DNA of 64,000 nucleotides from Escherichia phage vB_EcoM_ASO1B, in the sequence record MZ726792.1. One strand, given 5' to 3'. How positions within the stretch are numbered: the first letter of the stretch is position 1; each line of letters opens with the position of its first letter. The notes under the pieces were generated by a model. The model saw nothing but the letters and a program-made list of their open reading frames with translations, made no database searches and was not told the origin of the DNA. Positions 1,803-1,934 of this stretch are shown here, piece by piece. A program made the position numbers and the translations under genes.

Positions 1803-1934
1803 CAGAAGACCGTTTACAGCAAAACTTAAACAATCTATTTCTCCGGTAAAGAAAAGGCGAAGGTTCGATTCCTTCACTCGGCAGATGTCGAGTTGGTGTA
1901 ATGGTAGCACTTAAGATGATAAACAACGGTCTGG
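1803..1934 (+). ncRNA. repeat unit U4 carrying a permuted tRNA-like module (candidate Y-RNA-like/YrlA-like ncRNA)
   Basis: 5' box 1803-1811, hairpin GTTTA-CAGCAAAACT-TAAAC, T-arm 1859-1875, acceptor 3' strand 1876-1882, 4-nt loop, acceptor 5' strand 1887-1893, D-arm 1896-1910, 3' box 1928-1934. Confidence 0.5.

Follow-up and report, generated by a model that had tools for sequence, protein, structure and literature searches.

Organization of the locus

The window, the whole 64-kb stretch of Escherichia phage vB_EcoM_ASO1B (MZ726792.1) that was analysed, comes from a Felixounavirus and is 99.4% identical to MZ726791. It opens with the 3' part of a protein gene and contains a dense tRNA array (25 tRNAs according to ARAGORN). 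Four further elements, the short units U1-U3 and the long unit U4, each fill the space that separates two tRNAs or a tRNA from a neighbouring unit (Table 1). Two promoter-like sites lie upstream of the array, and a scan downstream of them found no terminator-like site on the + strand before 2334.

A basal helix and an adjacent single-stranded motif, (U)UACAGCAA, are common to U4 and U1-U3, and all four units have the stem, a G-C pair and a 3' CUG. Pairing of GGUCUGG in one unit with CAGAAGACC in the next, across the intervening tRNAs, was rejected, as covariation of the outer 4-bp helices is confined to single units and does not extend to neighbours. An element at 3640-3734, which contains CTGAAGACC, was excluded from the family, as it is devoid of the CAGCAA motif and folds differently.

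Table 1. Features of the locus, in window coordinates.
Feature	Position	Strand	Description
Gene of the predicted Ro60-fold protein, 3' part	1-827	+	274 codons and stop of 471 aa; presumed protein partner
Promoter-like site	846-874	+	TTGACA-17-TAATAT; 5' of first tRNA (993)
Promoter-like site	937-966	+	TTGACA-18-TAAAGT; extended -10 TG
U1, short unit	1159-1236	+	outer helix UGAC/GUCA; AGA versus G internal loop; inner helix AGACCAA/UUGGUCU
U1 motif	1173-1181	+	UUACAGCAA
U2, short unit	1325-1390	+	outer helix UUGC/GCAA; inner helix AGACCGU/ACGGUCU; motif AUUCAGCAA
U3, short unit	1714-1792	+	outer helix GAGC/GCUC; inner helix AGACCAA/UUGGUCU; motif AUACAGCAA
U4, long unit	1800-1937	+	138 nt; carries permuted tRNA-like core (from fold and alignment of relatives)
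U4 outer helix	1800-1803/1934-1937	+	UUAC/GUAA
U4 internal loop	1804-1806 facing 1933	+	AGA facing G
U4 inner helix	1807-1814/1925-1932	+	
U4 signature motif, single-stranded	1815-1822	+	UACAGCAA; abuts 3' side of basal helix 5' strand
U4 anticodon-arm-like hairpin	1838-1854	+	TTTCT-CCGGTAA-AGAAA; 5 bp, 7-nt loop CCGGUAA
U4 'variable loop'	1855-1858	+	AGGC; 4 nt, between anticodon-arm-like hairpin and T-arm
U4 T-arm	1859-1875	+	GAAGG-UUCGAUU-CCUUC
U4 closed acceptor stem	1876-1893	+	7 bp, one U-G
U4 acceptor 3' strand	1876-1882	+	ACUCGGC
U4 acceptor loop	1883-1886	+	AGAU
U4 acceptor 5' strand	1887-1893	+	GUCGAGU
U4 U8-G9 and D-arm	1894-1910	+	TG (1894-1895), then GUGU-AAUGGUA-GCAC (1896-1910)

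The upstream protein contains the Pfam domains DUF2828 (PF11443) and DUF7788/vWA (PF25043), which are its only Pfam matches even at E ≤ 1; Pfam TROVE (PF05731) did not match. On the sequence level, a phmmer search against the PDB and an NCBIfam search likewise yielded no match to Ro60, and the kinship was recovered by fold comparison only. For this comparison, the AlphaFold model of a 98%-identical protein (P0001; pLDDT 87, pTM 0.88) was used. Foldseek placed none but structures of Ro60, Rsr or TROVE proteins among the ten best PDB matches of the model (TM 0.52-0.67 over ~540 columns; best structures matched: 9kop, 2i91, 2nvo, 9nfa, 1yvr, 1yvp). TROVE and Ro-like phage proteins were matched as well. 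According to the model, the protein would have the layout of the Ro60 family, with a ring of HEAT repeats and a C-terminal vWA domain carrying a MIDAS motif. This motif, DVSSSM, is encoded at window positions 247-264, and none of 30 homologues deviates at D279, S281, or S283. On this basis, the protein is predicted to have the Ro60 fold (TM up to 0.67) and would supply the upstream Ro60 homologue that the first-pass annotation of the window had envisaged as a possibility. The same protein in phage Bas63, gp130, has been called Ro60-like; a PhageMaP preprint tied gp130 to Ro60 and to anti-ppl activity and guessed that Y RNAs are hidden among the tRNAs (PMC11482910). Counteraction of the ppl defence system by Bas63 gp130 is the only genetic datum on the protein, and ppl is predicted to target DNA, not tRNA (PMC11482910).

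A permuted tRNA-like core in U4

U4 contains all four arms of a tRNA in circularly permuted order; the permuted cloverleaf opens at 26/27, the attachment point of the basal helix. The permuted module is real and its coordinates are exact, the decisive evidence being comparative. The first-pass annotation had placed the T-arm, both acceptor strands with their AGAT loop, the TG dinucleotide and the D-arm at positions that all agree with Table 1, and it had proposed that the module is embedded in a unit with pairing ends. The minimum-free-energy and centroid folds of 1800-1942 reproduce the T-arm, acceptor and D-arm hairpins and enclose them in a terminal helix, the ends of which we locate at 1800 and 1937. 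However, the annotation had also stated that no anticodon arm follows the D-arm and that no 5' half lies before the T-arm, and it had let the module begin at 1853. An anticodon-arm-like hairpin was found 4 nt upstream of the T-arm, and the proposed start cuts through it. The Rfam tRNA model aligned to 1826-1876 covers the anticodon, variable and T region with 22 bits.

The nucleotides that build the tRNA elbow are retained in U4 (U8, A14, G18G19, U54 U55 C56, and A58); its D-arm has A14, G18G19, and A21 and is preceded by U8. The folding-energy z-score of U4 is only -1.4 to -1.65, so that thermodynamics alone is weak evidence, and z-scores are modest across the units (-0.4 to -2.4). Pairing of CUUAA with UUAAG (1825-1829/1911-1915) was considered as an analogue of the anticodon stem and dropped, as it is not kept in Suspvirus or Mooglevirus. 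ATCT and AGAT may pair in its place, and ATTTA and TAAAT may do so in Mooglevirus.

Among nine Ounavirinae phages, the signature motif UACAGCAA is invariant and the acceptor hairpin occurs in three complementary versions (ACTCGGC/GTCGAGT, ACACGTT/GGCGTGT, and ACCCTTC/GAAGGGT). A wider comparison comprised 16 distinct long units from enterobacterial, Klebsiella, Cronobacter, Ralstonia, Mycobacterium, and uncultured phages; an 11-sequence version of the covariation analysis was also made. Across these 16 divergent units, 98.6% of cells are paired, and in 19 of the 23 base pairs both partners have changed. Covariation scored 0.939; slid partners gave at most 0.169, and none of 500 shuffles attained the observed value. 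Two pseudo-alignments (A3 and A4) were anchored on the T-loop, and the best-pairing acceptor and D registers were picked; because of this choice their percentage of paired positions is inflated, while the diversity of pair types is not. All seven pairs of the acceptor stem, four of the five in the T-arm and six of the seven in the basal helix covary, the latter seven being 100% paired. Position 8 is U in 15 units (C in L066 4521), G10:C25 is present in all 16, and all units with a listed D-loop keep A14 and the GG of this loop.

The module is 95-100% conserved in ~240 phage records and recurs beside DUF2828 genes in phages of other phyla. The anticodon-like loop, CCGGUAA in the window, drifts to CUGGUAA, CUUAUAA, or CUAUAAA among relatives. 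Suspvirus and the Shigella Moogleviruses close the acceptor stem with a UACG tetraloop, and at least four phage lineages encode N-CCA directly behind the acceptor 3' strand. Some family members have no acceptor hairpin or no tRNA-like part at all, and many long units carry inserts unrelated to tRNA. The tRNA-like arm is therefore not obligatory for the family.

Distribution of the units and likeness to known RNAs

A strict scan of the 64-kb window and 23 GenBank loci identified 66 units, every one of them on the gene strand, compared to 0-3 in shuffled sequences. All but four of the 66 adjoin DUF2828 genes; three, in the window, are remote from the gene, and one, in L021, is located inside a gene. 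In 59 IMG/VR loci with a DUF2828 protein of 40-46% identity, 42 loci contain 64 further units, again none on the other strand (shuffles: 0-4), and the strict scan found no unit in the other 17 of these distant loci. The units in the IMG/VR loci often start within a few hundred nucleotides of the gene's stop codon. DUF2828 genes usually adjoin tRNA arrays, but units are found beside the gene even where no array is near, as in Mycobacterium cluster L (three units in a ~370-nt gap after the gene) and Listeria A511 (three units before gp57). The gene strand of 73 distant DUF2828 loci contains 104 copies of TACAGCAA, compared to five on the other strand. The exact 11-mer CCUUACAGCAA is present in 22 of 73 related phage loci, with 23 occurrences on the gene strand and none on the other (0.12 expected). 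Non-permuted tRNAs also bear the helix and UACAGCA module, inserted at 26/27, for example the 114-nt tRNA-Asp(GUC) of FBKp34; oversized 'tRNAs' of 114-121 nt with the module occur in phages FBKp34, S13, and LAh_6. Literature searches on DUF2828/PF11443, the motif and Ro-like phage proteins yielded no description of these RNAs. They apparently form an undescribed, widespread RNA family that accompanies the DUF2828 protein in many phages.

YrlA RNAs are composed of a V stem-loop, a T element, an acceptor-like stem-loop and a D element, and their closing stem leads to a Ro60-binding module (Chen et al., 2014; PMC4201824). In vivo, Ro60 binds YrlA, which TruB and DusA furnish with tRNA modifications (Chen et al., 2014). 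U4 has the same order of T, acceptor-like and D elements, before which the V element is optional in YrlA (Chen et al., 2014). Both RNAs combine a terminal stem with a tRNA-like domain, conserve the elbow nucleotides, adjoin a gene for a protein with a known or predicted Ro60 fold and occur alongside shorter siblings without the tRNA-like part (YrlB-like). The acceptor stem of Mycobacterium smegmatis YrlA has 7 bp as in U4 (Chen et al., 2014). Several phage relatives encode N-CCA in the acceptor loop, whereas the loop of U4 in the window is AGAU and not CCA, and the tetraloop of the Suspvirus copies is probably uncuttable. Other features set U4 apart from YrlA. The 5'-strand motif GNCGAAN0-1G of YrlA is absent, and U4 instead has the helix, (U)UACAGCAA and the 3' CUG; the 5' strand of U4 reads UUACAGAAGACCGUUUACAGCAA, without GNCGAA, and its relatives share only the (A/U)G start and the CAGCAA motif. 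The partner of YrlA is a TROVE Ro60, whereas the neighbour of U4 is a DUF2828/DUF7788 protein with a predicted Ro60 fold that is not Pfam TROVE. Moreover, the hairpin preceding the T-arm of U4 has exact anticodon-arm geometry, and U4 is embedded in a phage tRNA array.

Scans of 5.6 kb and 261 nt with the Rfam YrlA model (RF02553) at E ≤ 10 gave no match overlapping 1800-1940, and in the Rfam gathering and permissive scans U4 was covered by no YrlA, Y_RNA, or other curated family. Orthologous long units beside DUF2828 genes reach 35-40 bits on this model, below its gathering threshold of 69 bits (39.6 bits in Klebsiella phage FBKp34, 39.8 in Mycobacterium phage Wamburgrxpress, and 35.2 in Sinorhizobium phage phiM12). 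The one YrlA 'match' of the window (5082-5204, 17 bits) spans tRNA-His and tRNA-Phe and was discarded as a dimeric-tRNA artefact; that dimeric tRNAs can mimic the YrlA pattern was pointed out by Chen et al. (PMC4201824). The YrlA-like reading of the first-pass annotation is partly supported. Topology (V-T-acceptor-D) and the predicted Ro60-fold neighbour speak for it, membership in Rfam YrlA and the GNCGAA motif do not, and U4 is best described as YrlA-type by topology and context but outside the Rfam YrlA family. In Thermus phage phiLo, Yrl1/Yrl2 and a phage Ro60 form a complex that binds host PNPase and damps RNA decay (PMC12135203). Phage-encoded Y-like RNAs adjoin the gene for a phage Ro60-fold protein there, too. 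However, the phiLo protein is a canonical TROVE Ro60, its RNAs have a CGAA motif, and a tRNA-like domain is not described there (PMC12135203).

The short units also resemble the Class I RNAs of Dictyostelium (RF01414), in which a short stem of the 5' and 3' ends is followed, right after the 5' strand, by a conserved single-stranded motif (Kjellin et al., 2021; PMC7919456). The phage units have such an end-joining stem and motif, and both groups have a 5' G, a 3' C-U-G, and a variable interior. Class I RNAs are 42-65 nt long and most short phage units 47-72 nt (39-87 nt in the strict scan), while U4 with its 138 nt exceeds the Class I range. The 11-nt Class I motif CCUUACAGCAA compares to UUACAGCAA in U1 and U4 (9/11). 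The Rfam model Dicty_Class_I_RNA aligns end to end with U1 at 17.5 bits, with U2 at 24 bits (model positions 1-56) and with units of other phages at 23-30 bits, all phage matches (17-30 bits) being below the gathering threshold of 41.5. Class I RNAs further differ in their eukaryotic host and their own DUSE promoter element (PMC7919456), whereas the promoters of the phage locus are sigma-70-like. Their known direct binder is the RRM protein Rnp1A/CIBP, no Ro60-like partner is known in Dictyostelium, and according to the published view they are confined to dictyostelids (PMC7919456).

A putative RNA partner of a Ro60-fold phage protein

We consider it probable that U4 belongs to the Y-RNA/YrlA type of modular non-coding RNAs and serves the Ro60-fold DUF2828/DUF7788 protein encoded directly upstream, even though the Rfam YrlA model is blind to U4 and the Y RNA motif (GNCGAA or CGAA) is absent. 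U1-U4 and the tRNA array would share transcripts that start from the sigma-70-like promoters at 846 and 937, and the units would be freed as RNase P and 3' processing trim the neighbouring tRNAs. The basal helix with the CAGCAA motif is a candidate binding site for the ring-shaped protein, comparable to the conserved lower stem bound by Ro60. The L-shaped tRNA-like domain might be an effector arm recognised by tRNA-binding enzymes or partners, and it may tether or gate the protein on RNA-metabolic machinery, a task that known YrlA/Y RNA fulfils with PNPase and that the phiLo Ro60 fulfils as well. In relatives with N-CCA, cleavage of the acceptor loop probably generates a free CCA end, similar to M. 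smegmatis YrlA. The role during infection would probably be RNA protection or quality control.

A protein-bound tRNA mimic could also act as a decoy or sensor for tRNA-targeting defences, or as a platform for tRNA repair, instead of tethering an exoribonuclease. The Bas63 protein counters a defence system, relatives are found near RNA ligase or PNK genes (RNA ligase 2 in Aeromonas LAh_6; LeBron; PNK in this phage group) and cellular Ro60-YrlA is encoded with an RtcB repair operon. Yet the anticodon-like loop, the usual target of nucleases, is the least conserved part of the module and ppl is predicted to act on DNA rather than tRNA, and we regard this role as rather unlikely. Cis-acting elements of the tRNA transcript unconnected to the protein, such as entry sites for RNase P, E, or III, insulators, or folding spacers, would explain why the units fill inter-tRNA gaps in the window and why their paired ends look like processing stems; tRNA arrays also usually adjoin DUF2828 genes. 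This is unlikely in view of the units that lie beside the gene without an adjacent tRNA (Mycobacterium cluster L, Listeria A511) or start, in many IMG/VR loci, a few hundred nucleotides from its stop codon. Moreover, a strictly conserved single-stranded motif of 8-11 nt typifies a protein-binding site and not an RNase stem.

The first-pass annotation had held a permuted tRNA gene or a decayed tandem duplicate to be equally possible. In the permuted tRNA genes of Cyanidioschyzon merolae and in two-piece permuted tmRNA, the 3' half is encoded first and the junction lies at the acceptor stem. Their mature products are functional, can be charged and retain conserved identity elements. If U4 were such a gene, cleavage of its transcript in the acceptor loop would be followed by ligation of the 26/27 ends, or the basal helix would keep the two pieces together, and the resulting tRNA would be aminoacylated and serve translation. 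U4 has the order and junction that define such genes, its four arms have tRNA spacing (17-nt anticodon-like arm, 4-nt variable loop, 7-bp acceptor stem), and close relatives have the canonical anticodon loop CUGGUAA with U33 and A37. N-CCA directly follows the acceptor 3' strand in several lineages, the helix and UACAGCA module is inserted at 26/27 of non-permuted tRNAs (FBKp34 tRNA-Asp(GUC)), and the phage encodes a polynucleotide kinase. However, the loop triplet varies even in near-identical phages (GGU, UAU, AUA), the window copy has C33 instead of the universal U33, and the UACG-sealed acceptor of Suspvirus and the Shigella Moogleviruses leaves no chargeable ends. Drift of the anticodon-like loop and frequent sealing of the acceptor stem thus distinguish the U4 family from the permuted tRNAs and tmRNA. 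The acceptor hairpin or the whole tRNA-like part is missing in some members; in the 19-68 kb stretch of the related TP1, polynucleotide kinase and DNA ligase are annotated and RNA ligase is not; ARAGORN reports no tRNA at 1800-1940, and the 22-bit Rfam tRNA match is partial (positions 7-64) and below the 29-bit cut-off. Because the loop varies freely and the tetraloop seals the acceptor in close relatives, a decoding tRNA is very unlikely. In the duplicate reading, a first tRNA gene would have left its T-arm and 3' end and a second, in tandem, its 5' end and D-arm, as a remnant without function of its own. The module does lie in a dense tRNA array, and the warning about dimeric tRNAs applies (Chen et al., PMC4201824). 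The covariation of all seven acceptor pairs among the 16 units is unexpected for unrelated neighbouring tRNAs and refutes such a duplicate, to which we assign next to no probability. The conservation in ~240 phage records and the recurrence by DUF2828 genes in phages of other phyla also contradict decay.

Ro60-Y RNA particles are a long-studied RNA-surveillance system, and Felix-O1-type phages find use in typing and therapy directed at Salmonella and E. coli. With U1-U4 as putative partners, a second and much larger phage-borne Ro60 branch (DUF2828) gains candidate RNAs with a searchable signature. The design appears to be modular, with one handle and interchangeable effector arms, a tRNA mimic among them. 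The protein has just been linked to counter-defence, and the four RNAs would be its obvious missing component and a testable partner in Felix-O1-type phages. Odd, oversized, or 'tRNA-OTHER' entries in the tRNA arrays of many phages are also explained by this module. More tentatively, and with the odds rather against it, the helix, CCUUACAGCAA, and CUG might constitute a universal RNA handle of the DUF2828 Ro60 branch, with the abundant Class I RNAs as its eukaryotic members. If so, a DUF2828 protein would have Class I RNAs as its 'Y RNAs', and a first function could be assigned to the DUF2828 proteins that phages, giant viruses, plants, and amoebae encode. Phages would then fuse the handle to tRNA bodies in both circular permutations, one with its ends at 26/27 (U4) and the other with its ends at the acceptor stem with CCA (the 114-121-nt 'tRNAs' of FBKp34, S13, and LAh_6). 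If the motif identity reflects a shared protein partner, it would tie the phage RNP to a 20-year-old puzzle of the social amoebae.

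The permuted cloverleaf of U4

Every element position that the first-pass annotation had given for the tRNA-like module of U4, the long RNA unit of the window, is exact in the sequence (see the table). Both the MFE structure and the centroid from RNAfold show the T, acceptor and D hairpins side by side within a long terminal helix; the folding energy is 1.4-1.65 sd better than that of shuffles, a modest difference that was given no weight. The same annotation had seen nothing tRNA-like 5' of the T-arm. However, a hairpin at 1838-1854 matches the anticodon-arm positions of the Rfam tRNA model (22 bits; 1826-1876 aligned to anticodon-arm, variable-loop and T-arm positions), and thus the set of four tRNA arms is full. 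With its tRNA spacing, the module is a circularly permuted cloverleaf, open at 26/27 and closed at the acceptor end.

Positions of RNA units, their elements and promoters in the window, and of oversized 'tRNA' genes in other phages
Feature	Position	Description
sigma-70-like promoter	846-874	upstream of tRNA/unit array
sigma-70-like promoter	937-966	upstream of tRNA/unit array
U1	1159-1236	short unit, U4-type base and motif, variable 30-40-nt interior
U2	1325-1390	short unit, U4-type base and motif, variable 30-40-nt interior
U3	1714-1792	short unit, U4-type base and motif, variable 30-40-nt interior
U4	1800-1937	outer helix UUAC/GUAA, AGA-opposite-G internal loop, inner helix AGACCGUU/AACGGUCU
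U4 anticodon-arm-like hairpin	1838-1854	5 bp, 7-nt loop; 4 nt (AGGC) to T-arm
U4 T-arm	1859-1875	read in sequence
U4 acceptor 3' strand	1876-1882	ACTCGGC; read in sequence
U4 acceptor loop	1883-1886	AGAT; read in sequence
U4 acceptor 5' strand	1887-1893	GTCGAGT; read in sequence
U4 U8-G9	1894-1895	read in sequence
U4 D-arm	1896-1910	GTGT-AATGGTA-GCAC; read in sequence
Oversized 'tRNA' genes, Cronobacter phage S13	5896-6016 and 6026-6138 (L013)	insert-bearing, CCA acceptor end
Oversized 'tRNA' gene, Aeromonas phage LAh_6	1495-1611 (L012)	insert-bearing, CCA acceptor end

Nine Ounavirinae (Felixounavirus, Suspvirus, Mooglevirus) share identical T- and D-arms, and their acceptor hairpins come in three mutually complementary versions (ACTCGGC/GTCGAGT, ACACGTT/GGCGTGT and ACCCTTC/GAAGGGT). 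The same architecture is found beside homologues of the protein gene in Klebsiella phage FBKp34, Cronobacter phage S13, Ralstonia phage RSP15, two Mycobacterium cluster L phages and several uncultured phages. When 16 distinct units were aligned with anchored registers over the basal helix and the T, acceptor and D stems, 98.6% of cells held standard pairs and 19 of 23 pairs had both-side changes; the acceptor and D registers were those that paired best, a choice that inflates the percentage paired and not how varied the pair types are. This alignment has a covariation score of 0.939 compared to at most 0.169 with slid partners, and none of 500 shuffles reached it. By this comparative evidence, the predicted fold of U4 is more than chance.

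A portable handle and two permutations

U4 shares with its shorter siblings U1-U3 a handle composed of the basal helix, an adjoining single-stranded CAGCAA-type motif (UACAGCAA in U4, directly 3' of the 5' strand of the basal helix) and a 3' CUG. The outer helices vary yet are complementary inside each unit (UGAC/GUCA, UUGC/GCAA, GAGC/GCUC, UUAC/GUAA), which rules out pairing between neighbouring units across tRNAs. The usual locus has one long unit, often but not always with a tRNA-like insert; some long units carry other inserts, and two have T- and D-arms but lack the acceptor hairpin. The latter arrangement (T-arm, 6-8 nt, D-arm) is seen at 1319-1415 and 1905-2013 of L048, an uncultured phage from IMG/VR, and is a minimal 'elbow-only' tRNA mimic; of the four long units on this contig, two are fully tRNA-like and encode CCA. 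Five long units with a common handle (AGATT..GT-ACAGCAA) and no tRNA-like domain are 96-101 nt long (L049 2737-2837, L050 2102-2197, L052 2558-2653, L058 2707-2806, L080 2734-2829), and further long units that have the family handle and lack this domain occur in L074, L090, L093, L095, L103 and L022 (2818-2924). L049 and L050, the two read in sequence, have a conserved interior ...GAACCUUUC[CU]GGAGGGGAAAGCAAAAACUCGCC. Such units show that the handle bears alternative putative effector arms.

The 114-nt 'tRNA-Asp(GUC)' of FBKp34 (L010 6003-6116) carries AACUUCU-UAGA-GAAGUU-UUACAGCA between D-arm and anticodon stem, that is, a loop-closed helix and motif of the U4 type; the acceptor end of this gene is open, with CCA as its terminus. 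The oversized 'tRNA' genes of FBKp34, S13 and LAh_6 (113-121 nt) all have such an insert, a helix with (U)UACAGCA and a small closing loop. U4 is a circular permutation of this design and these genes are its non-permuted counterparts. This relation supports the 1838-1854 hairpin as the anticodon-arm homologue. It also reveals the handle as a portable module joined at position 26/27 of tRNA bodies. In LAh_6 (L012 1545-1629), the motif strand AGAUUCC-UUACAGCAA is able to pair either with upstream GGAGUCU, as a closed hairpin within the tRNA-like gene, or with downstream GGAUCUGG, past the CCA end, a possible intermediate form between the permuted and non-permuted designs.

N-CCA is encoded directly 3' of the acceptor 3' strand in at least four phage lineages (GCCA in Moogle and Maleficent, ACCA in S13, GCCA in RSP15, CCCA and GCCA in two long units of L048). 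Each has a probability of 1/64 by chance, and this encoding suggests that the acceptor loop is opened in these phages. Cleavage is not essential to the family, as the loop is AGAU in the window copy and a UACG tetraloop in Suspvirus.

The tRNA array and the Ro60-fold gene

Over its first 4 kb, the window has 99.4% identity with Escherichia phage vB_EcoM_ASO1A; about 240 other Felix-O1-type phages (Ounavirinae, Felixounavirus) match this stretch at 95-97%. Twenty-five tRNA genes lie on the + strand across 993-6144, and the tRNA-like module is set in a 428-nt gap without tRNA, from the end of tRNA-Asp (1655) to the start of tRNA-Lys (2084). Two promoters precede the array and no terminator-like site was found on the + strand before the next promoter at 2334; hence the simplest route to mature U1-U4 would be a transcript shared with the tRNAs, from which tRNA end-processing frees the units.

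Other structured elements are found nearby. Directly 3' of U4, 1941-2073 folds into a 19-bp terminal stem (UCUUUGUAGAUAAGUUAUU/...) around a multi-hairpin junction (MFE -43 kcal/mol, z-score -5.0, 0/200 shuffles equally stable), with no Rfam match and no CAGCAA motif. Two neighbouring stable hairpins between tRNA-Asp and U3 (1656-1713; z -2.95, 0/200 shuffles equally stable) have no U-tract and are thus not an obvious terminator. The structured spacer between tRNA-Thr and tRNA-Val (3640-3734; MFE -30.7, z -2.9) folds differently from the units and lacks the CAGCAA motif, although its CUGAAGACCGU recalls their 5' strand. At 2334-2565, a strong promoter-like site (2334-2362, TTGACA-17-TATAGT) precedes a sequence resembling a tmRNA mRNA-like domain, in which AAAAUAAAUGCAAACGACAAUG... 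(about 2412-2444) codes for a tag-like peptide ANDNVFLAVA*; Rfam matches are sub-threshold (tmRNA_permuted, 29.2 bits, 2260-2444; tmRNA, 16 bits, 2376-2565) and ARAGORN finds no tmRNA. An odd tRNA-Arg(UCU)-like gene at 2565-2645 (Rfam tRNA 31.7 bits), annotated as tRNA-Arg in relatives and missed by ARAGORN in the window copy, has almost no D-arm, about 20 extra nt 5' of the T-arm and an acceptor G3:U70. An uncalled tRNA-like element at 2794-2875 (Rfam tRNA-Sec 23 bits, fold z-score -2.5) has a 10-bp acceptor-like stem, a T-arm, a 3' ...AUGCCA and a CCA-containing loop at the anticodon place.

The window begins within the gene ending at 827, and the full 471-aa protein was taken from a near-identical phage. 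It matches Pfam DUF2828 and DUF7788; Pfam gives no TROVE match, and no solved structure is matched at the sequence level. An AlphaFold model with 30 homologues as input (pLDDT 87, pTM 0.88) has only Ro60 proteins among its ten best PDB matches (Xenopus and human Ro60, Deinococcus Rsr, a phage TROVE domain), with alignments spanning the full length and TM up to 0.67. By this model comparison, the protein encoded upstream of U1-U4 is predicted to have a Ro60 fold, which answers the earlier question of a Ro60 homologue upstream. The vWA MIDAS motif is kept (DVSSSM; D279, S281 and S283 invariant), and comparison with viral models yields TROVE- or Ro-like-annotated proteins and DUF2828 proteins of giant viruses of protists. 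The protein is gp130 of phage Bas63, for which a Ro60-like structure has been noted and which counters the ppl defence system (2024 preprint, PMC11482910). In Vibrio phage XZ1 (L011 3965-4005), the 3' strand of a 41-nt mini-unit, GACAUU-UUACAGCAA...AAUGUC-AG, includes the AUG start of the DUF2828 gene; this single case hints at possible translational autoregulation by the protein.

Strict units were defined by a helix of at least 6 bp starting with [A/U]G and ending with C[U/A], CAGCAA at most 4 nt from the 5' strand and G after the 3' strand. The 64-kb window and 23 GenBank loci contain 66 on the gene strand and none on the other (shuffles 0-3); 62 of the 66 adjoin DUF2828 genes, three are remote from the gene in the window (16684, 28970, 55562) and one falls within an L021 gene. 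Another 59 loci, from IMG/VR and with a protein 40-46% identical, contain 64 on the gene strand, in 42 loci, and none on the other (shuffles 0-4); many of these start at most a few hundred nt from the stop codon or lie shortly before the gene. Three units stand beside the gene in Mycobacterium cluster L (short-long-short) and three flank it in Listeria A511, both with no tRNA adjacent, which disfavours a role purely in tRNA-array processing. A511 also has a full-length ROOL RNA match (L022 1465-2016; 87.5 bits, cut-off 99.1) between tRNA genes, about 650 nt upstream of its three CAGCAA units and DUF2828 gene gp57.

Relation to known RNAs and rival readings

YrlA, the bacterial tRNA-like Y RNA, combines a Ro60-binding stem with a tRNA-like domain whose elements run V, T, acceptor-like stem-loop, D; it has YrlB siblings, is encoded beside Ro60, and phages are among its carriers (Chen et al., 2014, PMC4201824). 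The YrlA reading of the first-pass annotation holds in part: U4 is built on the same plan of stem, domain order and siblings, near a gene for a protein of predicted Ro60 fold, but Rfam RF02553 does not match it at E<=10, the defining motif GNCGAAN0-1G is absent from U4, and its presumed partner is not TROVE by sequence. Orthologous long units of FBKp34, Wamburgrxpress and phiM12 reach 35-40 bits, below the cut-off of 69, which argues that the tRNA-like domains are alike and the protein-binding modules are not. M. smegmatis YrlA, with a 7-bp acceptor stem, receives CCA after an RNase P cut (Chen et al., 2014, PMC4201824), whereas the phage lineages above encode it.

The only Rfam family repeatedly matching the short units is RF01414, the Dictyostelium Class I RNAs (LAh_6, 29.6 and 28 bits; FBKp34, 25.2 and 23.6; U2, 24; Listeria A511, 23.1; U1, 17.5). 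All matches span model positions 1 to 56 and lie under the 41.5-bit cut-off. Per-family E-values (printed E/4227 families, matches after the first counting as replications) are about 1e-5 to 1e-4 for FBKp34, LAh_6 and U2 and weaker, about 5e-4 to 2e-3, for U1 and A511. Class I RNAs (42-65 nt) have a 6-bp end-joining stem, an invariant 5' G, the 11-nt motif CCUUACAGCAA directly 3' of the 5' strand, a variable interior and a 3' C-U-G (PMC7919456), a design that the short phage units, most of them 47-72 nt long, match point by point. On the gene strand, 22 of 73 non-Ounavirinae DUF2828 loci have the exact 11-mer, with 23 occurrences in all (expected 0.12); the other strand has none. The direct binder of Class I RNAs is an RRM protein (PMC7919456); DDB_G0281243, function unassigned, is another of four proteins pulled down with DdR-21, a Class I RNA. 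Tentatively, Class I RNAs might be eukaryotic members of the phage-unit family and candidate 'Y RNAs' of a DUF2828 protein.

The analysis shows the covarying permuted cloverleaf, the handle common to the units, the neighbour's Ro60 fold and the strand-specific, cross-phylum co-occurrence of RNA and gene. A decayed tandem duplicate, raised in the first-pass annotation, fails against the acceptor-hairpin versions and the 16-unit covariation; decayed neighbouring tRNAs cannot yield this pattern, and a pseudogene is therefore extremely improbable. That U4 is a decoding permuted tRNA is very unlikely. Units acting as protein-independent processing elements are improbable too, given their position around the DUF2828 gene in cluster L and A511. 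Slightly more plausible, though still unlikely, is a U4 RNP serving as a decoy or repair platform for tRNA-targeting defences.

Ro60-associated, tRNA-mimicking Y RNAs as a kind and the Ro60-like nature of the protein were already known. The RNAs themselves and their distinct handle appear to be new, as do the two permutations, the link to the DUF2828 branch in many phage groups and the Class I motif identity; none was found in Rfam 15 or the searchable literature. U4 is probably a YrlA-type Y RNA of the Ro60-fold DUF2828 protein: U1-U4 would be expressed and processed from the tRNA transcript, the ring protein would bind the handle and the tRNA-like arm would engage tRNA-recognising partners, so that the RNP may act in RNA surveillance or counter-defence.
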